A DNA stretch of 63,428 bases from the NCBI RefSeq assembly GCF_024223415.1, contig NZ_CP100504.1. One strand, given 5' to 3'. The DNA is from Escherichia coli. Lineage in GTDB: Bacteria; Pseudomonadota; Gammaproteobacteria; Enterobacterales; Enterobacteriaceae. Shown piece after piece: positions 7,231-59,625 of this stretch (positions within the stretch are counted from its first letter, which is position 1; each line of letters starts with the position of its first letter). Under the pieces are notes generated by a model that worked only from the letters and a program-made list of their open reading frames with translations, was not told the DNA's origin and made no database searches. Both the position numbers and the translations under genes were made by a program.

Positions 7231-7283
7231 TAAACGCTATCCTTGTAAACAGGCGAGTGGATGACCAGCAAATGGGAGTAATG

Positions 7284-15796: not shown

Positions 15797-15855
15797 CTGC
15801 TACTGCTACTGCTACTGCTACTGCTACTGCTACTGCTACTGCTACTGCTACTGCT
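15797..15855. repeat. hexanucleotide tandem repeat (CTGCTA)n, about 10 units
   Basis: ctgcta repeated in tandem immediately 5' of repeat copy 2; copies 1 and 3 have only a short unrepeated ctgct(g)ctc stretch at the equivalent position. Confidence 0.9.
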
Positions 15856-15866
15856 CTTCTTTTTCC

Positions 15867-16496
15867 TGCTGCTCTGATTCTGACTACTGCAGTGTTGTTC
15901 TGTCTGCCGGGCGCACCTTCGGCTCCCGGCTGCCTGGCGGCATCCGGTCGTCAGGCCCGACTCCGACAGGCAGCTGCTGGCGCACCTGCCAGTCTCCGCC
16001 GAACCCGCTGGCGCGGTTTCGGGCTGCCGCTACGGTCCGATGCGTGAAAACCCGGCTTGCAGCGACCGTTCCGGTCGCGCCGCCCCTGTCGCGCCGTGAC
16101 CTGCGCTCCAGGCATCCCGGCAAAAAGACGCCGGGATGTAAGGCGCAACGCCGTTTCGCAAACCGCGCTTCACGTCGTTGCGGCGGGTCCCTGCCCGTTG
16201 TTGTGTCCGGTGCCATTCACCTGTTTAAGCCCCTGTCGCCGGGGGCTGATACAGCCACAACCTGCCGCACTGACTGTCCAGGGTAAATGAACAGCCCACA
16301 AAATTTTTTACCCAAAACCCGGTAAAAAATTTTGCGTTCTGCCCAGGACAGGTGCGTCAGGCCGTGGCAGTGATGCCCCATGCGGCGAAGGTTCTCAAAC
16401 AGGTGATGGTGAATACCGGAGGGAACAAAGAGCAGGTCCCCGCAAAACGTCAAAACCGCGGCTCCCGAAACTCAACAGATGATGGGGGCTGAAAAC
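15867..16496. repeat. leading-region ~620-bp direct repeat, copy 2 (Frpo/ssi-like)
   Basis: Near-identical to copies 1 and 3; ends about 20 bp upstream of ssb. Confidence 0.85.
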
Positions 16497-17397: not shown

Positions 17398-19354
17398 ATG
17401 TCAGTTACAGAGTCTAAGACAAAAACGGAGCGTAAATCCAGCCGTAAACCTGCAAAAACGCAGGAAACTGCACTGTCTGCCCTGCTGGCGCAGACGGAGG
17501 AAGTGAGCGTGCCGCTGGATTCACTGATTAAATCACCGCTGAATGTGCGCACGGTGCCGTATTCTGCGGAGTCCGTCAGTGAACTGGCTGATTCCATTAA
17601 GGGAGTCGGCCTGCTGCAGAATCTGGTTGTTCATGCCCTGCCAGGTGACCGTTACGGTGTCGCCGCAGGTGGTCGCCGACTGGCAGCACTCAACATGCTG
17701 GCAGAGCGTGACATCATTCAGGCTGACTGGCCTGTCCGCGTGAAAATTATTCCGCAGGAGCTGGCGACGGCTGCATCGATGACCGAGAACGGTCATCGTC
17801 GGGATATGCACCCTGCCGAACAGATTGCCGGATTCCGTGCAATGGCGCAGGAAGGCAAAACGCCTGCACAAATCGGTGATTTGCTGGGCTATTCACCCCG
17901 CCACGTTCAGCGAATGCTGAAACTGGCAGACCTTGCGCCTGTCATCCTCGATGCGCTGGCAGAAGACCGCATCACCACAGAACACTGTCAGGCGCTGGCG
18001 CTGGAGAACGACACCGCGCGTCAGGTGCAGGTGTTTGACGCTGCCTGTCAGTCGGGATGGGGCGGTAAACCGGATGTGCGGGTTATCCGCAATCTGATTA
18101 CGGAAAGTGAAGTGGCGGTGGCGGGGAACAGTAAATTCCGCTTCGTGGGGGCTGATGCTTTCTCGCCAGACGAACTGCGCACCGATTTGTTCAGCGACGA
18201 CGAGGGTGGCTATGTCGACCGCGTGGCGCTCGATGCTGCCCTGCTGGAAAAACTCCAGGCTGTCGCTGAACACCTTCGGGAAGCCGAAGGCTGGGAATGG
18301 TGCGCCGGACGCATGGAGCCTGTCGGTGAGTGTCGTGAGGATGCCGGAACCTACTGCTGTCTGCCGGAGCCGGAAGCGGTGCTGACGGAGGCGGAAGAAG
18401 AACGCCTGAACGAACTGATGACGCGTTACGACGCGCTGGAAAACCAGTGTGAGGAATCCGACCTGCTGGAAGCAGAAATGAAGCTGATGCGCTGCATGGC
18501 GAAGGTCAGGGCGTGGACGCCGGAGATGCGTGCCGGAAGCGGTGTCGTGGTGTCCTGGCGTTACGGTAATGTGTGTCCAGCGTGGTGTGCAGTTGCGCAG
18601 TGAAGATGACGCGGCTGACGACGCTGACCGCACGGAACAGGTGCAGGAGAAAGCATCAGTGGAGGAAATCAGTCTGCCGTTGCTGACGAAAATGTCCTCA
18701 GAGCGCACGCTGGCAGTCCAGGCGGCACTCATGCAGCAGCCGGACAAATCTCTGGCACTGGTGGCATGGACGCTCTGCCTGAATGTGTTTGGCAGCGGGG
18801 CGTACAGTAAACCAGCACAAATCAGCCTGGAATGTGAACATTATTCGCTGACCAGCGATGCGCCATCGGGGAAGGAAGGTGCCGCATTCATGGCGCTGAT
18901 TGCAGAAAAAGCCCGTCTTGCTGCCCTGTTACCGGAGGGATGGTCACGGGACATGACGACATTCCTTTCACTCAGTCAGGAGGTGCTGTTATCCCTGCTC
19001 AGTTTCTGCACCGCATGCAGCCTTAACGGTGTCCAGACCCGTGAGTGTGGTCACACGTCACGCAGTCCGCTTGACTCGCTGGAAACCGCTATCGGATTCC
19101 ACATGCGCGACTGGTGGCAGCCGACAAAAGCAAACTTCTTCGGACACCTGAAAAAGCCGCAGATTATCGCAGCCCTGAATGAGGCAGGACTGTCCGGTGC
19201 CGCACGGGACGCGGAGAAGATGAAGAAAGGTGATGCGGCTGAACATGCAGAGCACCATATGAAAGACAACCGCTGGGTTCCAGGCTGGATGTGTGCACCA
19301 CATCCACAGACAGATGCCACTGAACGCACCGATAACCTGGCTGATGCCGCCTGA
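17398..19354 (+). pseudogene. ParB-like nuclease domain protein, reading frame interrupted
   Basis: Two overlapping ORFs (17398-18603 and 18530-19354) in different frames; the frame switch maps to a gtgtgt dinucleotide run near 18575; joined length ~650 aa. Confidence 0.6.
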
Positions 19355-20559: not shown

Positions 20560-20739
20560 TGCGGCAACAATCACACGGATTTCCCGTGAACGGTCTGAAT
20601 GAGCGGATTATTTTCAGGGAAAGTGAGTGTGGTCAGCGTGCAGGTATATGGGCTATGATGTGCCCGGCGCTTGAGGCTTTCTGCCTCATGACGTGAAGGT
20701 GGTTTGTTGCCGTGTTGTGTGGCAGAAAGAAGATAGCCC

Positions 20740-20810
20740 CGTAGTAAGTTAATTTTCATTAACCACCACGAGGCATCCCTATGTCTAGTCCACATCAGGA
20801 TAGCCTCTTA
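20740..20810 (-). ncRNA. sok: Sok antisense RNA (approximate)
   Basis: Placed by position antisense to the mok/hok leader, from the known organisation of hok/sok loci; exact ends not determinable by eye. Confidence 0.35.
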
Positions 20811-20993
20811 CCGCGCTTTGCGCAAGGAGAAGAAGGCCATGAAACTACCACGAAGTTCCCTTGTCTGGTGTGTGTTGATCGTGTGTCTCACACTGTTGAT
20901 ATTCACTTATCTGACACGAAAATCGCTGTGCGAGATTCGTTACAGAGACGGACACAGGGAGGTGGCGGCTTTCATGGCTTACGAATCCGGTAA
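20781..20993 (+). CDS. mok: Mok (modulation of killing) overlapping reading frame
   Basis: 70-aa ORF overlapping hok in another frame, as in R1 hok/sok. Confidence 0.55.
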
Positions 20994-20997: not shown

Positions 20998-21268
20998 CAA
21001 CCTGGAGGCGGGCGCAGGCCCGCCTTTTCAGGACTGATGCTGGTCTGACTACTGAAGCGCCTTTATAAAGGGGCTGCTGGTTCGCCGGTAGCCCCTTTCT
21101 CCTTGCTGATGTTGTACGGGCATGAACAACCTGACTTCAGGAAGGTCGTTTCCCTTCAGGAACGGGGATGAACGCGCGCCTGCGGCGCCCGTTCTTTTCC
21201 CCCGCCTTCTCTGGTTATGGCCTGTCAGAAATCACATCACCTTCCCTGTGATTATTCTCTTTTTCTTC

Positions 21269-21897
21269 CTGCTCTGATTCTGACTACTGCAGTGTTGTCC
21301 TGTCTGCCGGCGCACCTTCGGCTCCCGGCTGCCTGGCGGCATCCGGTCGTCAGGCCCGACTCCGACAGGCAGCTGCTGGCGCACCTGCCAGTCTCCGCCG
21401 AACCCGCTGGCGCGGTTTCGGGCTGTCGCTACGGTCCGATGCGTGAAAACCCCGGGCTTGCAGCGACCGTTCCGGTCGCGCCGCCTCTGTCGCGCCGTGG
21501 CCTGCGCTCCAGGCATCCCGGCAAAAAGACGCCGGGATGTAAGGCGCAACGCCGTTTCGCAAACCGCGCTTCACGTCGTTGCGGCGGGTCCCTGCCCGTT
21601 GTTGTGTCCGGTGCCATTCACCTGTTTAAGCCCCTGTCGCCGGGGGCTGATACAGCCACAACCTGCCGCACTGACTGTCCAGGGTAAATGAACAGCCCAC
21701 AAAATTTTTTACCCAAAACCCGGTAAAAAATTTTGCGTTCTGCCCAGGACAGGTGCGTCAGGCCGTGGCAGTGATGCCCCTTGCGGCGAAGGTTCTCAAA
21801 CAGGTGATGGTGAATACCGGAGGGAACAAAGAGCAGGTCCCCGCAAAACGTCAAAACCGCGGCTCCCGAAACTCAACAGATGATGGGGGCTGAAAAC
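21269..21897. repeat. leading-region ~620-bp direct repeat, copy 3 (Frpo/ssi-like)
   Basis: Near-identical to copies 1 and 2; ends about 20 bp upstream of the ORF at 21918. Confidence 0.85.
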
Positions 21898-21917
21898 CAG
21901 AGAGAGGAGAAAGCTGG

Positions 21918-22205
21918 ATGAGTACCCGAAATATCCACGTTAACACCGCGTCGTACACGATTCTTGTTGCCGGGAGGGAAAAAAACACCGGGGAAGAGTG
22001 GGACGTCCTGGAATTCAGCAGCCTGACTGAGCTGAAAAAATATCGCAAAAGCCACCCGGAAAAGATGGCCTTCAGCTATAGCTACGCGCTCAGCCGGGGT
22101 GTGGATACGCAGTTCCGCCATATCAACATTGCGGAAGCCGATCACTTCAAACAGTTCCTGCGTCAGATTAAGCGTGCCGGCCTCGATATCCGGGCGATCT
22201 GCTGA
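21918..22205 (+). CDS. hypothetical leading-region protein
   Basis: 95-aa ORF with RBS gaggaga; first gene downstream of repeat copy 3. Confidence 0.5.
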   Translation: MSTRNIHVNTASYTILVAGREKNTGEEWDVLEFSSLTELKKYRKSHPEKMAFSYSYALSRGVDTQFRHINIAEADHFKQFLRQIKRAGLDIRAIC

Positions 22206-22323
22206 CCGGATGTGATGAATATCCCTCCTGATTGTTGCAATCTTGTTAATGGAGATCGGGAGAGATGATATTAAGCGGAAAAATTTTTTATTAAATTTAT
22301 TCTTTCATAAAGGAGTAGCTGTT

Positions 22324-23145
22324 ATGCGATTAGCTTCCCGTTTTGGTCGGTATAATTCCATCCGTCGTGAACGTCCTTTAACGGATGATGAATTAATGCA
22401 GTTCGTGCCTTCGGTATTTTCCGGTGATAAACATGAGTCCCGGAGTGAACGTTATACGTATATTCCAACAATCAATATCATCAATAAGTTACGTGATGAA
22501 GGTTTCCAGCCATTCTTTGCCTGTCAGAGTCGGGTTCGTGATTTGGGACGCCGCGAATACAGTAAACATATGTTACGTCTTCGCAGGGAAGGGCATATTA
22601 ACGGGCAGGAAGTTCCTGAAATTATCCTGCTTAATTCACATGATGGTTCATCCAGTTATCAGATGATCCCCGGAATTTTTCGTTTTGTCTGCACAAATGG
22701 CCTGGTGTGCGGAAATAATTTTGGCGAAATCCGTGTTCCACATAAAGGTGATATTGTCGGGCAGGTTATCGAGGGAGCGTATGAAGTGCTCGGTGTCTTT
22801 GATAAGGTCACTGATAATATGGAGGCGATGAAAGAAATTCATCTTAACAGTGACGAGCAACATTTATTTGGCAGAGCTGCACTGATGGTCAGGTATGAAG
22901 ATGAAAATAAAACGCCAGTGACGCCTGAACAAATAATTACTCCCCGTCGTCGGGAAGATAAAAAGAACGATCTCTGGACAACCTGGCAGCGGGTTCAGGA
23001 GAATATGATAAAAGGTGGATTATCGGGGCGAAGTGCCTCCGGGAAAAATACCAGGACAAGAGCCATTACAGGTATTGATGGTGATATAAGAATCAACAAG
23101 GCGTTATGGGTGATTGCCGAACAGTTCAGAAAGTGGAAGTCATGA
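22324..23145 (+). CDS. DUF932-like leading-region protein
   Basis: 273 aa from the ATG at 22324 (RBS aggag); conserved partner of orf169 near oriT in F-like plasmids. Confidence 0.65.
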   Translation: MRLASRFGRYNSIRRERPLTDDELMQFVPSVFSGDKHESRSERYTYIPTINIINKLRDEGFQPFFACQSRVRDLGRREYSKHMLRLRREGHINGQEVPEIILLNSHDGSSSYQMIPGIFRFVCTNGLVCGNNFGEIRVPHKGDIVGQVIEGAYEVLGVFDKVTDNMEAMKEIHLNSDEQHLFGRAALMVRYEDENKTPVTPEQIITPRRREDKKNDLWTTWQRVQENMIKGGLSGRSASGKNTRTRAITGIDGDIRINKALWVIAEQFRKWKS

Positions 23146-23150
23146 TAATA

Positions 23151-23187
23151 TAAGTAAAGCCCCGAAAATTTTTCGGGGCTTTACTTA
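23151..23187. terminator. rho-independent-type terminator hairpin
   Basis: Perfect palindrome taagtaaagccccgaaaa-t-tttcggggctttactta starting 6 nt after the stop of the upstream gene. Confidence 0.55.
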
Positions 23188-23439
23188 TATTATCATTCTT
23201 CGGCATCGCTGTGTCGTCTGATATACCTCAATTCCATCAACCGGCTTTCCGGTTGTCTGTAAATATTGTGCCCGCGAAAAATGGTCTGGCAGGAGGCTGC
23301 GCAGTTACCGGGTATATATAAGATGGGTTCCCGCTTCGCGGGGCTTCGGCCAGTCAGCATTGTCACTCATATGATATTTTTGTGTGTGGCCTTCATGCCG
23401 CTTTTGCGGCATAACCGGTATCTGACAATGTCTGTAAGA

Positions 23440-23949
23440 TTAATTGTTCTGCACGCTGTTAATTTCCGGAAGTGATTTCTTCGTGACCGGAATCCGGATA
23501 CCTTTACTGATTTTTATCCCGGTATAAATCCGGTAAACCTCTGATGCGTAGGCAAGACGTCTCTGGTTCTGGCGTTCGGTCTTCCTGAATCCGGCATTGT
23601 ATGCACCAACGGCCTCCCAGGAGACGCCCCATTTTTTAAAGGCTATTGCCAGATAATAAGCACCGGTATAAATGTTCATGCAGGGATCTGTTGTCAGATG
23701 TTCCGGCTTAATTCCGTAGCGGGCCAGTTCGTTAAAATGCTGGGAATCTACCTGCATCAGTCCGCTGCCATATCCCGTTACCGGATTAATACCGATGGCA
23801 TTAACCCGGTAACGGGATTCTTTCCATGATATTGCTCTCAGTAAATCAGGATCTATTTTGTAATCCCGGCCTGCAAGATCAAAGCAATCAGTGGCATGGC
23901 AGATCTCATTTATAAACATCAGGCAGATGGCTAACATCCATTTTTTCAT
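23440..23949 (-). CDS. lytic transglycosylase-like protein (orf169 / gene X), SLT domain
   Basis: 169 aa from [12 protein letters not shown] with RBS gaggtgg; signal peptide; directly adjacent to oriT. Confidence 0.8.
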
Positions 23950-24364
23950 TTTTCCACCTCTGGTGACTTTATCCGTAAATAATTTAACCCACTCCACAAA
24001 AAGGCTCAACAGGTTGGTGGTTCTCACCACCAAAAGCACCACACCCCACGCAAAAACAAGTTTTTGCTGATTTACGTTTTAAATCATGTAATTAACAAAT
24101 GCTATTTATATTTAATTATTCTGAATTATTAAATAGAGAGTCGTTGGCGATCCTGTTACGACCCTATAGCGACCCTTATTAGGATCAGTACTGACAATTT
24201 TCATGAAAAACATTGATATATATTAGGGGCACCCCTAGCGCCGGATCGCATTTTTTTATAGGATAATCCTAGAGGCGCTACTAGGAGTGTCTTTCTTACT
24301 TGTAAACACTATATTCATATTTATACTGAAAAGTTCATTGCTTAATGATGAAAGGTTTTATTTT
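23950..24364. other. oriT (origin of transfer) with F-type nic site
   Basis: Minus strand reads gcaaaaacttgtttttgcgtggggtgt/ggtgcttttggtggtgagaaccacc, matching the F oriT nick region; nick falls between 24039 and 24040 on the minus strand; AT-rich region upstream of traM. Confidence 0.8.
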
Positions 24365-24748
24365 ATGGCCAGAGTAATTTTGTATATCAGTAATGATGTC
24401 TATGATAAAGTAAATGCGATAGTTGAACAGCGTCGTCAGGAGGGGGCAAGAGATAAAGATATAAGCCTTTCAGGAACTGCTTCAATGCTTCTTGAACTGG
24501 GGCTTCGCGTATATGAGGCTCAGATGGAGCGTAAAGAGTCTGCATTTAATCAGACTGAGTTTAATAAATTACTTCTTGAATGTGTTGTAAAAACACAGTC
24601 ATCAGTAGCGAAAATTTTGGGTATTGAGTCTCTAAGTCCCCATGTCTCCGGGAATCCAAAGTTTGAATATGCCAATATGGTTGAAGATATTCGTGAGAAG
24701 GTGTCATCTGAGATGGAACGATTTTTTCCAAAAAATGATGACGAATAA
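24365..24748 (+). CDS. traM: relaxosome protein TraM
   Basis: 127 aa from MARVILYISNDVYDKVNAIVEQRRQEGARDKD...; matches TraM. Confidence 0.9.
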   Translation: MARVILYISNDVYDKVNAIVEQRRQEGARDKDISLSGTASMLLELGLRVYEAQMERKESAFNQTEFNKLLLECVVKTQSSVAKILGIESLSPHVSGNPKFEYANMVEDIREKVSSEMERFFPKNDDE

Positions 24749-24809
24749 AAAAGAATTAAAAGTTGATTTACTTCAAATAACAGAGTTTTGATCTGGTTCA
24801 ATTTGATGA

Positions 24810-24910
24810 CAATTAACCACATAAAGGTTATATTAATTATGTGGTTAATGCCACGTTAAAAATTTAGTTTGAATCGCCAATGCAGGGAGTAGCACCTCCC
24901 TGCATTGACT
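24810..24910 (-). ncRNA. finP: FinP antisense RNA (approximate)
   Basis: Two inverted repeats in the traJ leader (ttaaccacat...atgtggttaa; tgcagggag-tagcac-ctccctgca) just upstream of the traJ RBS. Confidence 0.5.
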
Positions 24911-24938
24911 GTCCATAGAATCCTTTGAGGAGGTTCCT

Positions 24939-25590
24939 ATGTGTGCAATGGATCGTAGAGAAAGAGCACTCATTCGTCAATTACATTTCCCTAACGACTT
25001 AAGAGAGAACATTTCATTATTGAAATATCCCGTATGTATACGTTTTGAAGACGGTTCTTTTATAGGAACAAATCACAGCTTCGAGCGATTTATTAAATTA
25101 TCATATTGTTCATGTGATGAATGGTTTGAGCATTTGACTTTAGAATCCAAGTTACAACTATCAAGATCTGAGATGGATTCATATTTTTCAACTTATGGTG
25201 TAAGTTATATTAATAATGTTTCAATTAGTGCTATGTCATGGAGCATGGTTATCGAAACACTCAATACAAATGAAGGTTGTTTTTTCGTCTGGCGATTTAT
25301 TGAGTCAAATGACAAAAATATTTCAACATCTTTGATTTCTAAATCTAATGATGGGTTGATATTTTTTCTGGGGAATATATAGATATTGAACCCTATCTTG
25401 TAGGGTTTAGCCATTATTATTCTGCAGCAGTGACAAAAATTAGTATATCTAAATCCAAGAAGAAAACGATGAATTTTTTCAAAATGAATGGGTTTAGTTC
25501 CAGAGATCACTGGTTGGATGAAATGCTCAGGTCTGAAAAAATACTATTTCTATATGATAGAGTAAAAGGAATATTAAAAAACAAGTGTTA
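24939..25590 (+). pseudogene. traJ: transfer activator TraJ, apparent frameshift
   Basis: 147-aa ORF stops at 25382, but the +2 frame is open from 25350 to 25590; the frame change coincides with a T6 run (25363-25368); combined length ~215 aa. Confidence 0.55.
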
Positions 25591-25715
25591 ATTTATTGTG
25601 AACTTAAGGGAACCATCGGTTCCCTTTTTTGTTAATATAATTTACGTTATTTTTGTTTCTATTTTTATGGATTCGTATAATTATATTTAATTATCTAAGT
25701 GGCTGAGGAGGAGAC

Positions 25716-25943
25716 TTGAGCAGAAATATAATAAGGCCTGCTCCGGGCAATAAAGTTTTACTGGTATTGGACGATGCTACTAATCACAAGCTCTTAGGTG
25801 CCCGGGAGCGTAGCGGGAGAACAAAAACTAATGAGGTGCTAGTCAGATTACGTGATCATCTGAGCCGTTTTCCTGACTTTTATAATCCGGATGCAATAAA
25901 GGAGGGAACAGGGGAAACTGATTCGATAATTAAAGATCTTTAA
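25716..25943 (+). CDS. traY: relaxosome accessory protein TraY (short R100-type)
   Basis: 75-aa ORF with TTG start after ggaggaga; position between traJ and traA. Confidence 0.8.
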   Translation: MSRNIIRPAPGNKVLLVLDDATNHKLLGARERSGRTKTNEVLVRLRDHLSRFPDFYNPDAIKEGTGETDSIIKDL

Positions 25944-25975
25944 GTTTATTAATCTATCCACAATAGAGGTAACTT

Positions 25976-26335
25976 ATGAATGCTGTTTTAAGTGTTCAGG
26001 GTGCTTCTGCGCCCGTCAAAAAGAAGTCGTTTTTTTCTAAATTCACTCGTCTGAATATGCTTCGCCTGGCTCGCGCTGTGATCCCGGCTGCTGTTCTGAT
26101 GATGTTCTTCCCGCAACTGGCAATGGCAGCACAGGGCCAGGACCTGATGGCAAGCGGTAACACCACGGTTAAGGCGACCTTCGGTAAGGACTCCAGTGTT
26201 GTTAAATGGGTCGTTCTGGCTGAAGTTCTGGTCGGTGCTGTCATGTACATGATGACCAAAAACGTCAAGTTCCTGGCCGGTTTTGCCATCATCTCTGTAT
26301 TTATTGCTGTGGGTATGGCCGTCGTTGGCCTCTGA
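25976..26335 (+). CDS. traA: propilin TraA
   Basis: 119 aa with a long leader and hydrophobic mature pilin segment; matches F-type pilin. Confidence 0.95.
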
Positions 26336-26349
26336 CAGGAAATAAAACG

Positions 26350-26661
26350 ATGTCGGGAGACGAGAATAAACTTAAGAAATATCGTTTCCCGGAAACACTG
26401 ACCAACCAGAGCCGCTGGTTTGGCCTGCCACTGGATGAACTGATCCCCGCAGCAATCTGTGTTGGCTGGGGTATCACAACATCGAAATATCTGTTCGGTA
26501 TTGGTGCAGCTGTTCTGGTTTATTTCGGGATTAAAAAACTGAAAAAAGGGCGGGGCAGTTCCTGGTTACGTGACCTGATTTACTGGTATATGCCAACAGC
26601 CCTGCTGCGCGGTATTTTTCATAATGTTCCCGATTCGTGTTTCCGGCAGTGGATTAAATAG
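26350..26661 (+). CDS. traL: pilus assembly protein TraL
   Basis: 103-aa membrane protein in the expected position; matches TraL. Confidence 0.9.
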
Positions 26662-26682
26662 AACTGATATCAGGATTGTTAT

Positions 26683-27249
26683 ATGGAACACGGTGCCCGT
26701 TTAAGTACCAGTCGTGTAATGGCCATCGCCTTTATATTTATGTCAGTGCTTATTGTTCTCAGCCTCTCTGTTAACGTCATTCAGGGGGTGAATAACTACC
26801 GTCTTCAGAATGAGCAACGCACTGCCGTGACGCCAATGGCATTTAATGCCCCCTTTGCCGTGTCACAGAACAGTGCCGACGCCTCTTATTTACAGCAGAT
26901 GGCGCTGTCATTTATTGCCCTCCGTCTGAATGTTTCATCAGAAACCGTCGATGCCTCACATCAGGCGCTTCTGCAATATATCCGCCCGGGCGCACAGAAC
27001 CAGATGAAAGTTATTCTGGCTGAAGAAGCGAAGCGTATTAAAAACGATAACGTGAACTCAGCCTTTTTCCAGACCAGTGTTCGTGTCTGGCCTCAGTATG
27101 GCCGTGTGGAAATTCGTGGTGTGCTTAAAACCTGGATTGGTGATTCAAAACCTTTCACTGATATCAAACATTACATCCTTATTCTGAAGCGGGAAAACGG
27201 GGTGACCTGGCTGGATAATTTCGGGGAAACAGACGATGAGAAAAAATAA
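26683..27249 (+). CDS. traE: pilus assembly protein TraE
   Basis: 188 aa; position and sequence match TraE. Confidence 0.9.
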
Positions 27250-27964
27250 TACGGCAATAATATTCGGCGGCCTGTTTTTTTCCTGCAGCGTGATGGCCGC
27301 AAACGGTACGCTGGCCCCCACTGTGGTGCCAATGGTGAACGGTGGTCAGGCCAGTATTGCCATCAGCAATACCAGCCCGAATCTGTTTACCGTTCCCGGT
27401 GACCGGATTATCGCCGTGAACAGTCTGGATGGTGCCCTGACCAATAATGAGCAGACCTCCTCCGGCGGTGTGGTGGTGGCCACCGTCAACAAAAAGCCCT
27501 TTACGTTCATTCTGGAAACAGAACGTGGTCTGAATCTTTCCATTCAGGCCGTTCCCCGTGAAGGCGCGGGGCGTACCATTCAGCTGGTCAGTGACCTGCG
27601 CGGAACCGGAGAAGAAGCCGGTGCGTGGGAAACGTCCACGCCTTACGAATCCCTGCTTGTGACCATCAGCCAGGCTGTCCGTGGCGGAAAATTACCTGCA
27701 GGCTGGTATCAGGTTCCTGTGACAAAGGAAACCCTGCAGGCCCCGGCGGGGCTGTCTTCAGTGGCAGATGCCGTATGGACGGGGAATCACCTGAAGATGG
27801 TCCGCTTTGTCGTGGAAAATAAAACGCTGTCTGCCCTGAATATCCGGGAAAGTGATTTCTGGCAGCCGGGAACCCGTGCCGTGATGTTCAGCCAGCCTGC
27901 CAGCCAGTTACTGGCAGGTGCGCGCATGGATGTGTATGTCATCCGTGACGGGGAGGGCAACTGA
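27236..27964 (+). CDS. traK: T4SS secretin-like protein TraK
   Basis: 242 aa with signal peptide; matches TraK. Confidence 0.9.
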
Positions 27965-29391
27965 TGGCCAGTATCAACACCATTGTGAAACGCAAGCAGT
28001 ACTTGTGGCTGGGGATTGTGGTTGTCGGTGCAGCCTCCGCGATTGGTGGGGCACTGTATCTGTCTGATGTGGACATGTCCGGTAACGGTGAGGCGGTGGC
28101 TGAACAGGAGCCTGTACCGGATATGACCGGTGTGGTGGATACGACCTTTGATGACAAGGTGCGTCAGCATGCCACCACAGAGATGCAGGTGACGGCAGCG
28201 CAGATGCAGAAGCAGTATGAGGAAATCCGTCGTGAGCTGGATGTCCTGAACAAACAGCGCGGTGATGACCAGCGTCGTATTGAAAAGCTGGGACAGGATA
28301 ATGCTGCCCTGGCAGAGCAGGTAAAAGCCCTGGGTGCAAATCCCGTCACCGCGACCGGTGAGCCAGTACCGCAGACGCCAGCCTCACCGCCCGGCCCGGA
28401 AGGCGAACCACAGCCAGGAAACACACCCGTATCTTTCCCGCCGCAGGGCAGCGTTGCTGTTCCACCGCCGACGGCGTTTTATCCCGGGAATGGTGTCACG
28501 CCACCACCACAGGTGACGTACCAGTCTGTGCCGGTGCCTAACCGGATACAGCGTAAGGTGTTTACCCGTAATGAGGGAAAACAGGGACCATCACTGCCGT
28601 ACATTCCGTCAGGAAGTTTTGCGAAAGCCATGCTGATTGAAGGGGCGGATGCCAATGCCTCTGTCACCGGTAATGAATCCACGGTGCCGATGCAGCTGCG
28701 TATCACCGGCCTGGTGGAAATGCCGAACAGCAAGACGTATGACGCAACGGGATGTTTTGTGGGTCTGGAAGCCTGGGGGGATGTGTCCAGTGAGCGTGCC
28801 ATTGTACGCACCCGCAATATCAGCTGCCTGAAGGACGGCAAAACTATTGATATGCCGATTAAGGGGCATGTCAGCTTCCGGGGTAAAAACGGTATCAAGG
28901 GCGAAGTGGTGATGCGTAACGGCAAAATCCTCGGCTGGGCATGGGGCGCGGGATTTGTTGACGGTATCGGTCAGGGAATGGAGCGTGCCTCCCAGCCGGC
29001 TGTCGGGCTGGGTGCCACCGCTGCTTACGGGGCCGGCGATGTCCTTAAAATGGGTATCGGTGGCGGCGCATCGAAAGCCGCACAGACGCTCAGTGACTAC
29101 TACATCAAACGTGCCGAACAGTATCACCCGGTGATACCGATTGGTGCGGGCAACGAAGTGACCGTGGTGTTCCAGGACGGCTTCCAGCTGAAAACCGTGG
29201 AAGAGATGGCGCTGGAACGCACGCAGAGCAGAGCTGAAGAAGACAATCCGGAAAGTCCGGTTCCTGTTCCGCCATCGGCTGAAAGTCATCTTAACGGCTT
29301 TAATACTGACCAGATGCTGAAGCAGCTGGGCAACCTGAATCCGCAGCAGTTTATGTCCGGCAGCCAGGGAGGGGGCAACGATGGCAAATAA
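27964..29391 (+). CDS. traB: T4SS core protein TraB
   Basis: 475 aa with an N-terminal TM segment and a Pro-rich linker; matches TraB. Confidence 0.9.
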   Translation: MASINTIVKRKQYLWLGIVVVGAASAIGGALYLSDVDMSGNGEAVAEQEPVPDMTGVVDTTFDDKVRQHATTEMQVTAAQMQKQYEEIRRELDVLNKQRGDDQRRIEKLGQDNAALAEQVKALGANPVTATGEPVPQTPASPPGPEGEPQPGNTPVSFPPQGSVAVPPPTAFYPGNGVTPPPQVTYQSVPVPNRIQRKVFTRNEGKQGPSLPYIPSGSFAKAMLIEGADANASVTGNESTVPMQLRITGLVEMPNSKTYDATGCFVGLEAWGDVSSERAIVRTRNISCLKDGKTIDMPIKGHVSFRGKNGIKGEVVMRNGKILGWAWGAGFVDGIGQGMERASQPAVGLGATAAYGAGDVLKMGIGGGASKAAQTLSDYYIKRAEQYHPVIPIGAGNEVTVVFQDGFQLKTVEEMALERTQSRAEEDNPESPVPVPPSAESHLNGFNTDQMLKQLGNLNPQQFMSGSQGGGNDGK

Positions 29392-29965
29392 TATGTCACT
29401 CCGTCAGATATGCCATGCCACCCGGTATGTTGTTGTCCGGGGCCTGTGTTGGTTGTTCTGGTGTCTGAAATACGCCGTCATTCTGCCACTGGCCACAATG
29501 GCCCTGATGGCTCTGTTTGTTTTATGGAAGGACAACACCACACCGGGAAAATTACTGGTTCAGGAAATTGACTTCGTAAGACAAACAGCCCCTGCCGGGC
29601 AGTTTCCTGTAAGAGAATGTTTGCCTTCTCTGCATGATCTTCCAGGAGCAGAAGAGAAAATCTGCCGTTACCGTGCTGCTGATGCTGCAGATTATGTCAG
29701 GGAGACTGACCGGTCACTGATGCAACTGGTCACCGCATTCTGGGCAACGCTGGCACTTATGTATATGTCGTTTGCGGCAGGCACCGGGAAATATCCGGTG
29801 CGACCCGGAAAAATGAAATGTGTCCGTGTGGCAACAGCAGATGAGCGTCTGAAGGAAGTTCTTGCAGAAGACACTTCCCTGCCGGGAAAAATCAGGGAAT
29901 GCCATGTTTATTTCCCTGATGACCGAACAAACAGAAGCAACGGAGATAAAAATGAACATGCGTAA
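29381..29965 (+). CDS. traP: conjugal transfer protein TraP
   Basis: 194-aa membrane protein in the expected position. Confidence 0.85.
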   Translation: MANNMSLRQICHATRYVVVRGLCWLFWCLKYAVILPLATMALMALFVLWKDNTTPGKLLVQEIDFVRQTAPAGQFPVRECLPSLHDLPGAEEKICRYRAADAADYVRETDRSLMQLVTAFWATLALMYMSFAAGTGKYPVRPGKMKCVRVATADERLKEVLAEDTSLPGKIRECHVYFPDDRTNRSNGDKNEHA

Positions 29966-30272
29966 TATTAATGTTATTACAGCCCGCGTTGTGCCGGATA
30001 AAAACGTATCAGATGATTTTATGCATGCTGTTCTCAGTAACTGCACCACAAAAATAGTTCTTCCTGCTCCGAAGGTGTTCAGTTCTGAATCATTGCCGCA
30101 CAAATTTAATATGGCTGCTGTCGGTGTGATGAAGAAGGGAATGTCGATGAGCTTATTTTCTTCTCCGGGAAATACAGTGGTCTCCGGACATCCCTGTGCA
30201 GGGAAAACAAATCTGACAGCAGAGTTAATTTCTGCTGTTGTGGGGAGTAATAAAAAAGGAGAAGGGCAATGA
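29952..30272 (+). CDS. TrbD/TrbG-like small transfer protein
   Basis: 106-aa ORF from MNMRNINVITARVV (RBS ggag) filling the traP-traV gap; cannot tell whether it corresponds to trbD, trbG or a fusion. Confidence 0.5.
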   Translation: MNMRNINVITARVVPDKNVSDDFMHAVLSNCTTKIVLPAPKVFSSESLPHKFNMAAVGVMKKGMSMSLFSSPGNTVVSGHPCAGKTNLTAELISAVVGSNKKGEGQ

Positions 30273-30784
30273 AACAGATTTCTTTATTTATTCCTCTGCT
30301 GGGAACCTTATTACTTTCCGGCTGCGCAGGAACAAATACGGAATTTGAGTGTAACGCCACCACATCCGATACCTGTATGACGATGGAGCAGGCCAATGAG
30401 AAGGCCAAAAAACTGGAGCAGTCCTCAGAAGCAAAGCCGGTTGCGGCATCACTGCCGCGCCTGGCTGAAGGGAACTTCCGGACAATGCCGGTGCAGACCA
30501 TCACCGCGACCACTCCGTCCGGCAGCAGACCTGCGGTGACGACACTTCCGGAGCAGAAACTGCTGACACCTCGCCCGCTGTTTACTGCAGCCCGGGAAGT
30601 GAAAACGGTTGTCCCGGTCAGTTCAGTTGCGCCGGTAACGCCTCCCCGTCCGTTAAGAACGGGTGAGCAGACGGCAGCATTATGGATAGCACCATATATT
30701 GATAATCAGGATGTTTATCATCAGCCATCCAGTGTGTTTTTTGTTATTAAACCGTCTGCGTGGGGAAAACCACGTATTAATTAA
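30269..30784 (+). CDS. traV: outer-membrane lipoprotein TraV
   Basis: 171 aa with lipobox LLLSGCAG; matches TraV. Confidence 0.9.
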   Translation: MKQISLFIPLLGTLLLSGCAGTNTEFECNATTSDTCMTMEQANEKAKKLEQSSEAKPVAASLPRLAEGNFRTMPVQTITATTPSGSRPAVTTLPEQKLLTPRPLFTAAREVKTVVPVSSVAPVTPPRPLRTGEQTAALWIAPYIDNQDVYHQPSSVFFVIKPSAWGKPRIN

Positions 30785-30918
30785 CTGGCCCTGAAGTTGT
30801 ATATCAGCCGGCAATGTCGGCGGGCTTTCTGTATTCAAAATCTGCCTGTAAAACGAGTGCCCTGTGCGTGAAAAGGGATGGGCGGTAGCGTGTCAGAACA
30901 TGTCGGGAGGAATATTCC

Positions 30919-31140
30919 GTGAGTGATGAAGCCGATGAAGCATATTCAGTGACAGAACAACTGACCATGACAGGAATAAACCGGATACGCCAGAAAATAA
31001 ATGCTCATGGTATTCCTGTTTATCTCTGTGAAGCATGCGGAAATCCTATTCCGGAAGCCCGGCGGAAAATATTTCCCGGTGTGACGTTGTGCGTTGAATG
31101 TCAGGCGTATCAGGAAAGGCAGAGGAAACACTATGCATAA
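30919..31140 (+). CDS. traR: TraR (DksA/TraR C4 zinc-finger family)
   Basis: 73 aa with CEACGNPIPEARRKIFPGVTLCVECQ zinc-finger motif. Confidence 0.9.
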   Translation: MSDEADEAYSVTEQLTMTGINRIRQKINAHGIPVYLCEACGNPIPEARRKIFPGVTLCVECQAYQERQRKHYA

Positions 31141-31609
31141 ATCAGAAAATGAAAAAATAGATTTTATTATGGATGAGCATGAGCGGATATTCAGAAAACA
31201 GGGTTCTTTGTGTATGGCACTGGGTAAGGGCTTTTTAGTTATAGCTATTCTTTGTGGTGTTGCCACATTCTGTGTTTCTGGCCTGTATCTGAAATCCCTG
31301 TGCCTGTCTGTTGCCTGCTGTTGTGGGGTATTCAGTCGTATTTTTAATTATTACAGCGTACCGGAGGAATCACGCATGGTACTCAGTCGTCAGGAATTAC
31401 TCCGGCTTATGCTTCTGACTGAAGACGTACCGGATGTGAGACAGGAACTGCTTAACCGTTTGTTGTCCGGTAAAAAACTGACTGGTCGGGATGAACAGGA
31501 TATCCGGCGTCTCTGGCAGGAGAAAGTGGATGCAATGCAGGAGTCTGCCACCCGTCAGCGTGAACAGGATACTATTCGGAAGTTTACTGAAGGGATATTC
31601 AGTGATTAA
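31133..31609 (+). CDS. hypothetical membrane protein (cargo between traR and traC)
   Basis: ~158 aa from MHKSENEK (RBS gaggaaa), overlapping the traR stop; one hydrophobic segment; visibly AT-rich. Confidence 0.5.
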   Translation: MHKSENEKIDFIMDEHERIFRKQGSLCMALGKGFLVIAILCGVATFCVSGLYLKSLCLSVACCCGVFSRIFNYYSVPEESRMVLSRQELLRLMLLTEDVPDVRQELLNRLLSGKKLTGRDEQDIRRLWQEKVDAMQESATRQREQDTIRKFTEGIFSD

Positions 31610-31632
31610 TATACAAGCGGAGATAATAAAGA

Positions 31633-31848
31633 ATGCATACCTTTATTTTTCTTGTGCTGATAAAAAATATTAACGGTGGCGGAAGCTGGAATATTACACC
31701 CATGCCAAATACGGACGTATGCGTGCAGGTTCTTCGGACAATCGAGTCACACGGAGGCAGGGGATTTGGAAATACAGGGGAATGTATTGAAGTTAAAACA
31801 AATAAACCTTTGAACAACGTGATGGATACACTGAATGGGGGGCAATGA
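31633..31848 (+). CDS. small hypothetical protein
   Basis: 71-aa ORF with RBS ggag; hydrophobic N-terminus; AT-rich. Confidence 0.4.
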   Translation: MHTFIFLVLIKNINGGGSWNITPMPNTDVCVQVLRTIESHGGRGFGNTGECIEVKTNKPLNNVMDTLNGGQ

Positions 31849-31875
31849 GTGCTTACTGCTTCAAAGGAAAATGAA

Positions 31876-32238
31876 ATGAAGTCGATATATTTAGAATCTG
31901 TTCTGGCTTTTATATTTGTTGGCGTTATGGCTATGTTGATATGTGGTCTTTTTTACAATGACTACCTTGAGCAACAACCTGCAACACCAGAACAACTGAG
32001 AGAGATTACACAGGATATCCCCTGTGCAGCAGAAGCATTTAAGGAAGCTATTAAGTCTGACACATCTGATTATCAGCCTGAACCTTTAAGTCTTGGTAAG
32101 GCAAAAAAGCTTGCATCAGCGTGTAGAGAAAGAAACGAAATGGCAGAGGTGAAACGGGTAAGAGAAAATGAGCGCAATAAGATTCGCGAAAAACAAATTC
32201 AGGCATTAAATGATGCTCATTCAGTAAAGGAACGTTAA
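31876..32238 (+). CDS. hypothetical membrane-anchored protein
   Basis: ~120 aa from MKSIYLESVLAFIFVGVMAMLICG (RBS aaagga); charged C-terminal region; AT-rich. Confidence 0.45.
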   Translation: MKSIYLESVLAFIFVGVMAMLICGLFYNDYLEQQPATPEQLREITQDIPCAAEAFKEAIKSDTSDYQPEPLSLGKAKKLASACRERNEMAEVKRVRENERNKIREKQIQALNDAHSVKER

Positions 32239-32363
32239 TCCTGGTTTCCTGTTAAAAGCCTCCATCTCTTATTTGTGCTGTGGTTTCAGGAATGGCACTG
32301 CGTGATATATCCACGGCCACAGACTGATATTTTCCTTTTTTAAACGCACTAAGGAATACGCAT

Positions 32364-34994
32364 ATGAGTAATAACCCACTTGAGGCCGTCACTCAGGCGG
32401 TTAACTCCCTCGTCACAGCACTGAAACTGCCTGACGAATCAGCAAAGGCCAATGAAGTGCTGGGCGAAATGAGCTTCCCGCAGTTCAGCCGTCTGCTGCC
32501 GTACCGTGATTACAACCAGGAATCCGGTCTGTTCATGAATGACACCACGATGGGCTTTATGCTGGAAGCCATTCCCATCAATGGGGCGAATAAGTCCATT
32601 GTGGAGGCACTCGATCACATGCTGCGCACCAAACTGCCGCGCGATATTCCGTTGTGTATCAATCTGATGTCCAGTCAGCTGGTTGGTGACAGGATTGAAT
32701 ACGGGCTGCGTGAGTTCTCCTGGTCAGGTGAACAGGCTGAACGGTTTAACGCCATTACCCGGGCCTATTATATGAAAGCGGCAGCGACACAGTTTCCGCT
32801 GCCGGAGGGGATGAATCTGGCCCTGACCCTGCGCCATTACCGGGTGTTTATCTCGTACTGTTCTCCTTCGAAGAAAAAAAGCCGGGCCGACATTCTGGAA
32901 ATGGAAAACCTGGTGAAAATCATCCGGGCGTCGTTACAGGGGGCCAGTATCACCACACAGACGGTGGATGCACAGGCCTTTATCGATATTGTCGGGGAGA
33001 TGATTAACCATAACCCGGACTCCCTGTACCCGAAAAAACGTCAGCTGGACCCGTATTCTGATCTGAATTATCAGTGTGTGGAGGACAGTTTTGATCTGAA
33101 AGTCCGGGCTGATTACCTGACGCTGGGCCTGCGTGAGAACGGCAGGAACAGCACGGCCCGCATCCTGAATTTCCATCTGGCCCGTAACCCGGAAATCGCC
33201 TTCCTGTGGAACATGGCCGACAACTACAGCAACCTGCTGAACCCGGAACTGTCCATCTCCTGTCCGTTCATCCTGACGCTGACTCTGGTGGTGGAAGACC
33301 AGGTGAAAACCCACAGCGAAGCCAACCTGAAGTACATGGACCTGGAGAAAAAGTCGAAGACCTCCTATGCCAAATGGTTTCCGTCCGTGGAGAAAGAGGC
33401 GAAGGAGTGGGGGGAACTGCGTCAGCGGCTGGGCTCCGGTCAGTCCTCCGTGGTGTCCTACTTCCTCAACATCACAGCATTCTGCAAGGACAATAATGAA
33501 ACGGCGCTGAAAGTGGAGCAGGACATCCTGAACAGCTTTCGTAAAAACGGTTTTGAGCTGATTTCACCGCGCTTTAACCACATGCGCAATTTCCTGACCT
33601 GCCTGCCCTTTATGGCCGGGAAAGGGCTGTTTAAACAGCTGAAAGAGGCCGGAGTGGTTCAGCGCGCAGAGAGCTTTAATGTGGCCAACCTGATGCCGTT
33701 AGTGGCGGATAACCCCCTGACACCGGCAGGTCTGCTGGCACCCACCTACCGTAACCAGCTGGCGTTTATCGATATTTTCTTCCGGGGGATGAATAACACC
33801 AATTACAACATGGCGGTCTGTGGCACCTCCGGGGCCGGTAAAACCGGGCTGATACAGCCACTTATCCGCAGCGTGCTGGACTCCGGGGGCTTTGCCGTGG
33901 TGTTCGACATGGGGGATGGCTACAAGTCCCTGTGTGAGAACATGGGGGGCGTATATCTGGACGGTGAAACCCTGCGCTTTAACCCGTTTGCGAACATCAC
34001 CGATATTGACCAGTCAGCGGAGCGTGTCCGCGACCAGCTGTCGGTGATGGCCAGCCCCAACGGTAACCTGGATGAAGTGCATGAAGGTCTGCTGCTGCAG
34101 GCGGTCAGGGCATCATGGCTGGCCAAAGAGAACAGGGCTCGTATTGATGACGTGGTGGATTTCCTGAAAAACGCCAGTGACAGCGAGCAGTATGCCGGGT
34201 CACCGACTATCCGCAGCCGTCTGGACGAAATGATTGTGCTGCTTGACCAGTACACTGCCAACGGCACTTACGGCCAGTATTTTAACTCTGATGAGCCGTC
34301 CCTGCGGGATGATGCAAAAATGGTGGTGCTGGAGCTGGGCGGACTGGAAGACCGTCCGTCACTGCTGGTTGCGGTGATGTTCTCCCTGATTATCTACATC
34401 GAGAACAGGATGTACCGCACGCCGCGTAACCTCAAGAAACTGAACGTTATTGATGAAGGCTGGCGTCTGCTGGACTTCAAAAATCACAAGGTCGGTGAAT
34501 TTATTGAGAAAGGCTACCGTACGGCCCGCCGTCATACCGGTGCCTATATCACCATCACACAGAACATCGTCGACTTTGACTCTGACAAGGCCTCCAGTGC
34601 TGCCCGCGCGGCATGGGGTAACTCCTCCTACAAAATTATCCTCAGACAGAGTGCGAAGGAGTTCGCGAAATACAACCAGCTGTATCCGGACCAGTTCCAG
34701 CCACTGCAGCGCGACATGATTGGTAAGTTTGGTGCGGCCAAAGACCAGTGGTTCAGTTCCTTCCTGCTGCAGGTGGAAAACCATTCCTCCTGGCACCGCC
34801 TGTTTGTGGACCCGTTAAGCCGCGCCATGTACAGCTCTGACGGCCCGGATTTTGAGTTTGTGCAGCAGAAACGTAAAGAGGGGCTGAGTATTCATGAGGC
34901 GGTGTGGCAGCTGGCGTGGAAGAAGTCAGGGCCGGAGATGGCTTCGCTGGAAGCCTGGCTGGAAGAACATGAGAAATACAGGAGTGTTGCATGA
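32364..34994 (+). CDS. traC: T4SS ATPase TraC (VirB4-like)
   Basis: 876 aa with Walker A GTSGAGKT; matches TraC. Confidence 0.95.
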   Translation: MSNNPLEAVTQAVNSLVTALKLPDESAKANEVLGEMSFPQFSRLLPYRDYNQESGLFMNDTTMGFMLEAIPINGANKSIVEALDHMLRTKLPRDIPLCINLMSSQLVGDRIEYGLREFSWSGEQAERFNAITRAYYMKAAATQFPLPEGMNLALTLRHYRVFISYCSPSKKKSRADILEMENLVKIIRASLQGASITTQTVDAQAFIDIVGEMINHNPDSLYPKKRQLDPYSDLNYQCVEDSFDLKVRADYLTLGLRENGRNSTARILNFHLARNPEIAFLWNMADNYSNLLNPELSISCPFILTLTLVVEDQVKTHSEANLKYMDLEKKSKTSYAKWFPSVEKEAKEWGELRQRLGSGQSSVVSYFLNITAFCKDNNETALKVEQDILNSFRKNGFELISPRFNHMRNFLTCLPFMAGKGLFKQLKEAGVVQRAESFNVANLMPLVADNPLTPAGLLAPTYRNQLAFIDIFFRGMNNTNYNMAVCGTSGAGKTGLIQPLIRSVLDSGGFAVVFDMGDGYKSLCENMGGVYLDGETLRFNPFANITDIDQSAERVRDQLSVMASPNGNLDEVHEGLLLQAVRASWLAKENRARIDDVVDFLKNASDSEQYAGSPTIRSRLDEMIVLLDQYTANGTYGQYFNSDEPSLRDDAKMVVLELGGLEDRPSLLVAVMFSLIIYIENRMYRTPRNLKKLNVIDEGWRLLDFKNHKVGEFIEKGYRTARRHTGAYITITQNIVDFDSDKASSAARAAWGNSSYKIILRQSAKEFAKYNQLYPDQFQPLQRDMIGKFGAAKDQWFSSFLLQVENHSSWHRLFVDPLSRAMYSSDGPDFEFVQQKRKEGLSIHEAVWQLAWKKSGPEMASLEAWLEEHEKYRSVA

Positions 34995-50785: not shown

Positions 50786-52777
50786 ATGAGTTTTAACGCA
50801 AAGGATATGACCCAGGGCGGTCAGATTGCGTCCATGCGTATCCGCATGTTCAGCCAGATCGCCAATATCATGCTTTACTGCCTGTTTATTTTTTTCTGGA
50901 TACTCGTTGGTCTGATTTTATGGGTAAAAATAAGCTGGCAGACGTTTGTGAACGGCTGTATTTACTGGTGGTGTACCACGCTGGAAGGCATGCGGGATTT
51001 AATCAAGTCCCAGCCAGTATATGAGATTCAGTATTACGGCAAAACCTTCCGGATGAACTCTGCCCAGGTACTGCATGATAAATATATGATCTGGTGCGGT
51101 GAGCAGCTATGGTCCGCATTCGTTCTGGCGTCTGTCGTGGCCCTGGTTATTTGCCTGATCACCTTCTTTGTTGTCTCCTGGATTCTGGGGCGTCAGGGTA
51201 AACAACAGAGCGAAAATGAAGTCACAGGTGGTCGTCAGCTGACAGACAATCCGAAAGACGTTGCCCGGATGCTGAAAAAAGACGGCAAGGACTCCGATAT
51301 CCGGATTGGCGACCTGCCGATTATCCGGGATTCCGAAATCCAGAACTTCTGTCTGCACGGCACGGTCGGGGCCGGTAAGTCGGAGGTTATCCGTCGTCTG
51401 GCCAACTACGCCCGTCAGCGCGGTGATATGGTGGTGATTTATGACCGTTCAGGGGAATTTGTTAAAAGTTACTATGATCCCTCCATCGATAAAATCCTGA
51501 ATCCGCTGGATGCCCGCTGTGCCGCATGGGATTTGTGGAAGGAGTGTCTGACACAGCCGGATTTTGATAATACCGCAAATACTCTGATCCCTATGGGTAC
51601 AAAAGAGGACCCGTTCTGGCAGGGTTCAGGACGTACCATTTTTGCGGAAGCGGCGTACCTGATGCGTAATGACCCCAACCGCAGCTACAGCAAACTGGTG
51701 GACACACTGCTTTCCATCAAAATCGAAAAACTGCGTACCTTCCTGCGTAATTCTCCGGCGGCCAACCTGGTGGAAGAGAAAATTGAGAAAACGGCGATTT
51801 CCATCCGTGCTGTGCTGACCAACTACGTGAAAGCCATCCGTTACCTGCAGGGGATTGAGCATAACGGTGAGCCCTTCACCATACGTGACTGGATGCGTGG
51901 TGTCCGGGAAGATCAGAAAAACGGCTGGCTGTTTATTTCGTCGAACGCCGACACCCATGCCTCCCTGAAGCCGGTGATCTCCATGTGGCTGTCCATTGCC
52001 ATTCGTGGTCTGCTGGCAATGGGAGAAAACCGTAACCGTCGTGTGTGGTTTTTCTGTGATGAGTTACCCACGTTACACAAACTGCCGGACCTGGTGGAGA
52101 TCCTGCCGGAAGCCCGTAAGTTCGGTGGCTGTTATGTGTTTGGTATCCAGTCCTATGCCCAGCTGGAAGATATCTACGGTGAGAAAGCGGCGGCCACGCT
52201 GTTTGACGTCATGAACACCCGTGCTTTTTTCCGTTCCCCGAGCCATAAGATTGCAGAGTTCGCTGCCGGTGAGATTGGTGAGAAAGAGCACCTGAAAGCC
52301 AGCGAGCAGTATTCCTACGGTGCTGACCCGGTACGTGACGGGGTATCGACCGGTAAGGATATGGAGCGTCAGACGCTGGTCAGTTATTCCGACATTCAGT
52401 CTCTGCCGGATCTGACCTGCTATGTCACTCTGCCCGGACCGTATCCGGCAGTAAAACTCTCCCTGAAATATCAGGCACGACCGAAGGTCGCTCCGGAGTT
52501 TATTCCGCGTGACATCAACCCGGAAATGGAGAACCGTCTGAGTGCCGTACTTGCCGCAAGGGAAGCAGAAGGTCGTCAGATGGCCAGCCTCTTTGAACCG
52601 GAGGTTGCCTCCGGAGAAGATGTGACTCAGGCTGAACAGCCACAACAGCCACAACAGCCACAACAGCCACAACAGCCACAACAGCCACAACAGCCGGTGT
52701 CTCCTGCCATCAACGATAAGAAGTCAGATTCAGGTGTGAATGTTCCGGCAGGGGGATCGAGCAGGAGCTGGAAATGA
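50786..52777 (+). CDS. traD: type IV coupling protein TraD
   Basis: 663 aa with N-terminal TM segments, Walker A GTVGAGKS and a C-terminal QPQ repeat tail. Confidence 0.95.
52637..52690. repeat. 9-bp tandem repeat (cagccacaa)n inside traD
   Basis: About six tandem units encoding the (QPQ)n tract in the TraD C-terminal tail. Confidence 0.9.
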
Positions 52778-59064: not shown

Positions 59065-59625
59065 ATGACAGAGCAGAAGCGACCGGTACTGACACTGAAG
59101 CGGAAAACGGAAGGGGAGACGCCTGTCCGCAGCCGGAAAACCATCATCAATGTCACCACGCCACCAAAGTGGAAGGTGAAAAAGCAGAAGCTGGCCGAGA
59201 AAGCAGCCCGGGAAGCAGAGCTGGCGGCAAAAAAAGCGCAGGCCAGACAGGCACTGTCCATTTATCTGAACCTGCCCACGCTGGATGAGGCCGTGAATAC
59301 CCTGAAACCCTGGTGGCCGGGATTGTTTGACGGTGACACGCCCCGGCTTCTGGCCTGCGGTATCCGGGACGTGTTACTGGAAGACGTGGCGCAGCGGAAT
59401 ATCCCGCTCTCGCATAAAAAACTGCGCAGGGCGCTGAAGGCCATCACCCGTTCAGAAAGCTATCTGTGTGCCATGAAAGCCGGTGCCTGCCGGTATGACA
59501 CGGAAGGGTATGTGACGGAGCATATTTCTCAGGAGGAGGAAGCGTATGCGGCAGCGCGTCTGGATAAAATCCGCCGCCAGAACCGGATAAAGGCAGAACT
59601 TCAGGCCGTGCTTGATGAGAAATAA
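59065..59625 (+). CDS. finO: fertility inhibition protein FinO (intact)
   Basis: 186 aa starting [14 protein letters not shown]...; matches FinO; uninterrupted. Confidence 0.9.

Follow-up and report, generated by a model that had tools for sequence, protein, structure and literature searches.

The traJ gene of this IncFII F-like plasmid is very probably a genuine, vertically inherited loss-of-function allele. One base is missing from a run of seven T, leaving six, together with an adjacent G-to-A substitution (M141I) and a synonymous C-to-T change at 25271. Translation ends five codons past the shift, keeping the PAS dimerisation domain and linker and losing the LuxR-type helix-turn-helix (HTH) domain for the traY promoter. 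The traY-traX operon would go without activation, probably leaving the plasmid essentially non-self-transmissible, and the intact FinP/FinO repressor would be left without a useful target.

The window, that is, the whole stretch of DNA analysed (63,428 nt), starts with the IncFII repA1 gene (1-858) and ends with CopA (63253-63344). In between lie a leading region, an oriT-proximal traM, a full F-type tra region extending to traX, and finO, so that the window has the look of an entire F-like plasmid. Its backbone is mosaic, and a near-identical record overall was absent from PLSDB and from the complete RefSeq E. coli genomes. Downstream of oriT, the genes follow the order traM (24365-24748), traJ (from 24939) and traY (25716-25943), identical to that of annotated relatives, and traJ occupies two reading frames:

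24365..24748, + strand: traM, 127 aa, intact; matched by tblastn with a relative's TraM over the full length and without gaps; annotated traM at the same position in three close relatives (L001-L003)
24939..25382, + strand: traJ 5' fragment, ATG to TAG, 147 aa made of 142 native codons (with M141I) and 5 out-of-frame codons; PAS domain and linker only
25361..25367, + strand: mutated traJ site by alignment, A at 25361 (G in relatives) followed by T6 at 25362-25367 (T7 in relatives)
25352..25591, + strand: traJ 3' fragment, out of frame, TAA at 25589-25591; codes for the helical, LuxR-type HTH domain at the C terminus (from about residue 143 to 217 in intact TraJ)
25716..25943, + strand: traY, 75 aa, TTG start, head of the TraJ-dependent operon; called as an ORF, with annotated traY in the same place in L001-L003

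As a sequence-only reading of this DNA had proposed, the traJ ORF is present from ATG to TAG (24939-25382) and ends after 147 aa. The shift falls at codon 142 and the stop, TAG at 25380-25382, lies five codons beyond it. That reading had also placed an open +2 frame at 25350-25590 and the switch between frames at a run of six T at 25363-25368. The frame is indeed open and completes TraJ, but runs from 25352 to 25591, and the six-T run lies one base to the left, at 25362-25367. Jointly the two halves amount to a TraJ of normal size, 217 aa by alignment with relatives where about 215 had been suggested. The claim that the plasmid is without a full-length TraJ activator also stands, traJ being split at the T-run with its halves in different frames.

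The nearest comparison is with L001-L003 (99.3-99.5% identity over 941 nt), in which traJ is a single 654-nt CDS for a 217-aa protein labelled either TraJ or hypothetical protein. Where the window reads GATA-TTTTTT, all three read GATGTTTTTTT, so that the window has A for G at 25361 and is one T short. The product of the downstream frame, ending in ...KNKC, matches the intact TraJ of L002 at every position from 143 to 217 (100% identity), and differs from L001 and L003 at the last residue alone (C versus Y). This match identifies the downstream frame as homologous to TraJ rather than open by chance. Restoring one T yields a protein that matches the TraJ of the relatives except for M141I. The synonymous C-to-T change at window position 25271 is likewise absent from the T7 alleles. 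T7 is the longest homopolymer of intact traJ, and hence the likeliest place in the gene for a slippage mutation.

The effect on the protein was assessed with family models and structure prediction. Against NCBIfam NF010273, the window product covers positions 1-142 of 215 (E = 3e-53), with 143-215 missing, and the TraJ of an intact relative covers positions 1-213 of 215 (E = 2e-86). The intact protein scores 289 bits against a curated cutoff of 445, indicating that the 217-aa TraJ belongs to a divergent allele group, which in turn explains the 'hypothetical protein' labels. As an observation in its own right, this group is called 'hypothetical protein' in many RefSeq plasmids (L001-L003 and RefSeq relatives), an annotation gap. 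A Pfam-A scan of intact TraJ returned no significant match, and the newer PF27685 shows in precomputed annotation tables only. With phmmer, the F TraJ PAS domain (4KQD) can be aligned to residues 28-123 (E = 0.0012), the PAS of the 217-aa TraJ being about 21-23% identical to F TraJ.

An AlphaFold (AF2) model of TraJ (mean pLDDT 70) comprises a PAS domain at 30-122, a low-confidence linker at 125-144 and five helices at 145-216. Foldseek searches with this model ranked the F TraJ PAS 4KQD first (TM-score 0.78, normalised to target), followed by full-length matches to EL222 and VqmA, regulators that combine a PAS or LOV domain with a LuxR-type HTH. When homologues as distant as 37% identity were aligned, 24 of 61 invariant columns fell within residues 150-206, in the out-of-frame part, which holds the residues best conserved across the family. 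The window product thus has the N-terminal PAS in frame and lacks the C-terminal HTH, which lies in the other frame past the stop at 25380-25382. According to the model, the break falls in the PAS-HTH linker and removes the whole DNA-binding domain, and the 147-aa product is predicted to be unable to bind the traY promoter. In F-like plasmids the PAS domain of TraJ mediates homodimerisation (PMC7555446; this review and PMC5102898 are the background sources for TraJ used here).

The distribution of the allele was determined across public sequence collections. A 101-nt probe centred on the break matched 44 plasmid and 46 E. coli genome records. No match among these records reached at least 99% identity, and all matches listed span 102 nt, so all are G+T7; intermediates of the type G+T6 or A+T7 were likewise not found among the 44 plasmid and 46 E. 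coli genome records. A metagenome pattern scan, which permitted G or A together with T6-T8, recovered four contigs, all G+T7 and each encoding an intact 217-aa protein. Conversely, the exact 147-aa protein is present in NCBI, Logan and ENA (SRA12281.1, UTJ29610.1, WP_249960394.1), and the exact A+T6 string occurs on six other public contigs, namely a single assembly from NCBI (GCA_900482235.1), Logan assemblies of four different runs (SRR6986358, ERR2223693, ERR1156339, SRR19977217) and one ENA metagenome assembly (ERZ27280688). ERR1156339 (L014) and GCA_900482235.1 (L013) possibly derive from one isolate, sharing one single SNP relative to the window, and the T6 allele is best counted as about five independent observations rather than seven, on at least four backgrounds besides that of the window.

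In all T6 carriers, traJ is identical to that of the window over 653 nt, including T at 25271. The T6 haplotype always carries the two non-homopolymer SNPs (25271 T and 25361 A), which occur in no T7 record. The backbones of the carriers differ despite this identity. Compared with the window across 21868-35322, L008 has 0 differences in the traM-traJ-traY module (24000-26000), 17 mismatches in 23000-24000 and 85 in 29000-30000 (traP/trbD region). Identity within the module alongside divergence nearby places the T6 allele on a recombinant mosaic backbone.

These data bear directly on the alternative that T6 is a sequencing or assembly error and that traJ of the true plasmid is intact, which had been offered by the sequence-only reading as an equal possibility and which we now regard as scarcely credible. 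In its favour, the lesion is of the homopolymer type, and traD in this record has lost 1 nt from a G-run, a change private to the record among its sisters but recurring elsewhere in records that flag frameshifts in adjacent genes too. Against this, the six other contigs, from different projects, assemblers and backgrounds, share the A+T6 haplotype and the 147-aa product with the window, and T6 is always linked to 25271 T and 25361 A, both unseen in T7 records. The window contains 111 homopolymers of at least 6 bases and 22 other runs of at least 7 bases, and these leave genes in frame: tra and backbone genes with a counterpart in a reference plasmid are full length and in frame apart from traJ, traD and a ParB-like gene. 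The data behind SRR19977217 (L011), with two extra homopolymer deletions, are possibly error-prone. As a miscall would not recur across assemblers in one haplotype yet miss some 90 members of the other, the deposited sequences argue that the broken traJ is truly an inherited allele, with sequencing error set aside.

A different verdict applies to the second lesion:

50786..52777, + strand: traD (locus 50786-52974), 663 codons, cut by a 1-nt deletion (G5 at 52751-52755); last 73 codons out of frame at 52753-52971, up to traI

The gene is recovered by tblastn as two segments in different frames, and alignment with pGZM7d gives G6 versus G5 in the window. The two sister plasmids, GCA_900482235.1 and ERR1156339, which were fetched via the exact TraI sequence, have G6 and an intact traD, with zero base substitutions over 9.6 kb; the one other difference in GCA_900482235.1 is the glutamine/proline repeat count in its traD (741 aa). 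The protein collection searched held no exact copy of the truncated TraD. Other deposited plasmids share the traD G5, and their traI and traT likewise carry frameshift flags, a pattern that has the signature of a long-read error hotspot at GGGGGGATC. The traD break is private to the window, and a recent mutation and an assembly error are about equally likely. The complete tra operon described by the sequence-only reading is therefore not what the record contains, since traD carries its own frameshift (G5 for G6, 52751-52755), possibly through an assembly error. The C-terminal tail of TraD, which binds TraM (PMC7555446), is among the 73 out-of-frame codons. A single record thus holds two look-alike homopolymer frameshifts, one in traJ that is independently corroborated and real, and one in traD that is private, located at an error-prone G-run and doubtful.

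Several other observations were made outside the tra region. A segment at 1927-2479 and 2837-3112 replaces the yacAB/exonuclease/ISEcp1-blaCTX-M-14 segment of the closest backbone relatives; within it are an overlapping, toxin-antitoxin-like gene pair (87 and 99 aa) and a 91-aa ORF resembling a colicin-immunity protein, and no resistance gene was seen in it. The leading region contains a repeat of roughly 170-400 nt in three copies (12500-12810, 15770-16160 and 21260-21560), coding small hypothetical ORFs and resembling the single-strand promoter (ssi/Frpo) repeats of F-like leading regions. Two hok/sok-type loci lie at 20665-20841 in the leading region and at 62287-62443 beside the replicon (Rfam sok, 88.9 and 93.5 bits). 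The gene for a large ParB-like nuclease, also in the leading region, is split by a 2-nt deletion near 18570 into ORFs at 17398-18603 (401 aa) and 18530-19354 (274 aa), where the counterpart in pKP04CTXM has 652 aa. This deletion lies outside any homopolymer, and the split is common to GCA_900482235.1, in which the same 401-aa fragment is annotated.

The regulatory surroundings of traJ are preserved:

24806..24834, + strand: traJ promoter-like site, ATGACA-17-TATATT, 10 of 12 consensus matches, a consensus match only; just upstream of the 5' UTR start at 24839
24839..24944, + strand: traJ 5' UTR, the FinP target; Rfam RF00243 (traJ_5) over the whole model (1-109), 109.6 bits where the gathering score is 50
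24870..24945, - strand: FinP antisense RNA gene, overlapping the 5' UTR and the start codon of traJ; Rfam RF00107 over the whole model (1-76), 95 bits where the gathering score is 45
24980-24952, - strand: FinP promoter-like site, TTGACG-17-TACGAT, from a consensus scan
25606..25626, + strand: terminator-like hairpin after traJ, from a consensus scan; 9-bp stem followed by a T-run
59065..59625, + strand: finO, 186 aa, intact; 100% identity over 186 aa to annotated FinO; NCBIfam NF010317 covered from 1 to 186 of 186, 363 bits where the cutoff is 136

Consistent with the sequence-only reading, finO and finP are both intact, FinO being full length at 186 aa (363 bits versus 136) and FinP scoring 95 bits against 45 with RF00107. 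All five differences from L001, the nearest T7 relative over the 941 nt, lie inside the traJ CDS, and the flanks at 24780-24938 and 25593-25720 are identical, which leaves the gene for FinP, the promoters and the stretch between traJ and traY unaltered. FinOP acts on the translation of traJ mRNA. The idea of a doubly repressed transfer system consequently becomes moot, as the traJ product is without a DNA-binding domain anyway.

Other readings grant that T6 is real and assign it a function. One, raised by the sequence-only reading as a slippage-prone switch, is that the T-run reversibly turns transfer competence on and off by phase variation, with slipped-strand mispairing toggling T6 and T7 within populations. 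The length of the tract in the intact gene, the fact that a one-base gain would restore the frame, and a downstream frame undamaged in all carriers would all suit such a switch, but it is very improbable given the distribution of alleles: about 90 records and four metagenome contigs with G are all T7, seven sequences with A are all T6, and neither G+T6, A+T7 nor T8 was found among them. A tract of 6-7 nt is also short for a contingency locus. With only two states seen, each fixed on its own haplotype, and with perfect linkage to the flanking SNPs, one historical event fits better than frequent toggling. In another reading, ribosomes slipping back one base on A-UUU-UUU-C would still make full-length TraJ(M141I) at a low level, which would throttle transfer further. 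After a -1 slip at the second UUU, tRNA-Phe would pair perfectly again in the A site and the product would read ...GLIFFSGEY..., native except for M141I, and a hairpin lies 18 nt downstream (25386-25410). The heptamer A UUU UUU C, however, appears to depart from the canonical X XXY YYZ in the zero frame, in that its P-site codon would become AUU after the slip; the spacing of 18 nt exceeds the usual 5-9 nt between slippery site and structure; and no homologue has the two-frame layout, all being single-frame. Programmed frameshifting was rejected because the downstream hairpin is unexceptional (z = -1.76; 12 of 200 shuffles fold as well) and common to the in-frame alleles, in which it is unchanged. 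We give this reading hardly any credence.

The remaining alternative concerns the fragment itself. The 147-aa PAS-only product could be a dominant-negative anti-activator that forms dead heterodimers with TraJ from plasmids of the same allele group, whether these arrive or are already resident, the allele being maintained and not decaying. It keeps the whole dimerisation domain, with PAS mediating TraJ homodimerisation (PMC7555446), as well as promoter, 5' UTR and Shine-Dalgarno sequence (SD), and the allele is unchanged on mosaic backbones. Intact FinOP, on the other hand, would leave the fragment poorly translated, a truncated TraJ may be unstable, and a recent origin of the allele would account just as well for its lack of change. 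We consider this role unlikely, and trace full-length TraJ from -1 frameshifting less likely still. A dominant-negative role is compatible with loss of self-transfer, and if true would amount to protein-level fertility inhibition by a plasmid that gave up self-transfer.

Simple loss of function of traJ remains the preferred reading, and from the sequence we infer, on good grounds, that activation of PY and efficient self-transfer would be lost. Among the sisters, ERR2223693 (L009) is without traB through the 5' part of traD (positions 6098-7510), and SRR19977217 has three SNPs and two further indels relative to the window, the indels being 1-nt homopolymer deletions at 6908 and 11006 in traB (G6 to G5) and traC (A7 to A6). 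These lesions could reflect decay after TraJ loss or, for the SRR19977217 run, read errors. The traB-traD deletion in one sister, together with further frameshifts in sisters and window, suggests relaxed selection on tra genes, and the plasmid lineage seems to be losing self-transfer. Within traJ itself, all T6 carriers are identical, with no further decay downstream, a state also expected of a young allele or of some remaining selection.

The traJ break is an ordinary loss-of-function lesion of an allele already in public databases, and invokes no new mechanism. A search of the literature on natural traJ frameshifts found nothing specific to the A+T6 allele. Its practical value lies in annotation and epidemiology. 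Typing tools score A+T6 plasmids as 'conjugative' from relaxase, type IV secretion system (T4SS) and coupling-protein genes, and without a DNA-binding TraJ these plasmids are probably not self-transmissible. The case advises caution with in silico 'conjugative' calls and provides an example of separating real from artefactual homopolymer frameshifts.

Three known systems offer a comparison. In classical group A, MOBF12 F-like plasmids (F, R1, R100 and pSLT; PRK13719 sub-models; 4KQD and 4EW7), TraJ is an activator of PY composed of a PAS domain and a C-terminal HTH. The window gene resembles these in its position between traM and traY, its Rfam-recognised 5' UTR and FinP, and an N-terminal PAS fold like 4KQD; once its frame is restored, the protein matches NCBIfam models for TraJ along their whole length (E = 2e-86), and TraJ is annotated in relatives. 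Unlike classical TraJ, it belongs to a distinct 217-aa allele group with a sub-cutoff score, and in the window its HTH is out of frame and the product incomplete. The FinOP fertility inhibition system, comprising the FinP antisense RNA and the FinO chaperone, is matched in both components, which are full length, with finO uninterrupted. In the F plasmid, finO is reportedly interrupted by an IS3 insertion; the window thus combines an intact finO with a broken traJ, whereas F combines a broken finO with an intact traJ. Laboratory traJ null mutants of F (e.g., amber or frameshift alleles) are said to be transfer-deficient, and natural decay of the tra region has reportedly been seen in IncF plasmids. 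The window is like both in that the activator is lost and the structural tra genes are largely intact, with more tra lesions in its sisters, but unlike the laboratory nulls, the A+T6 allele circulates naturally and is found in several public samples.
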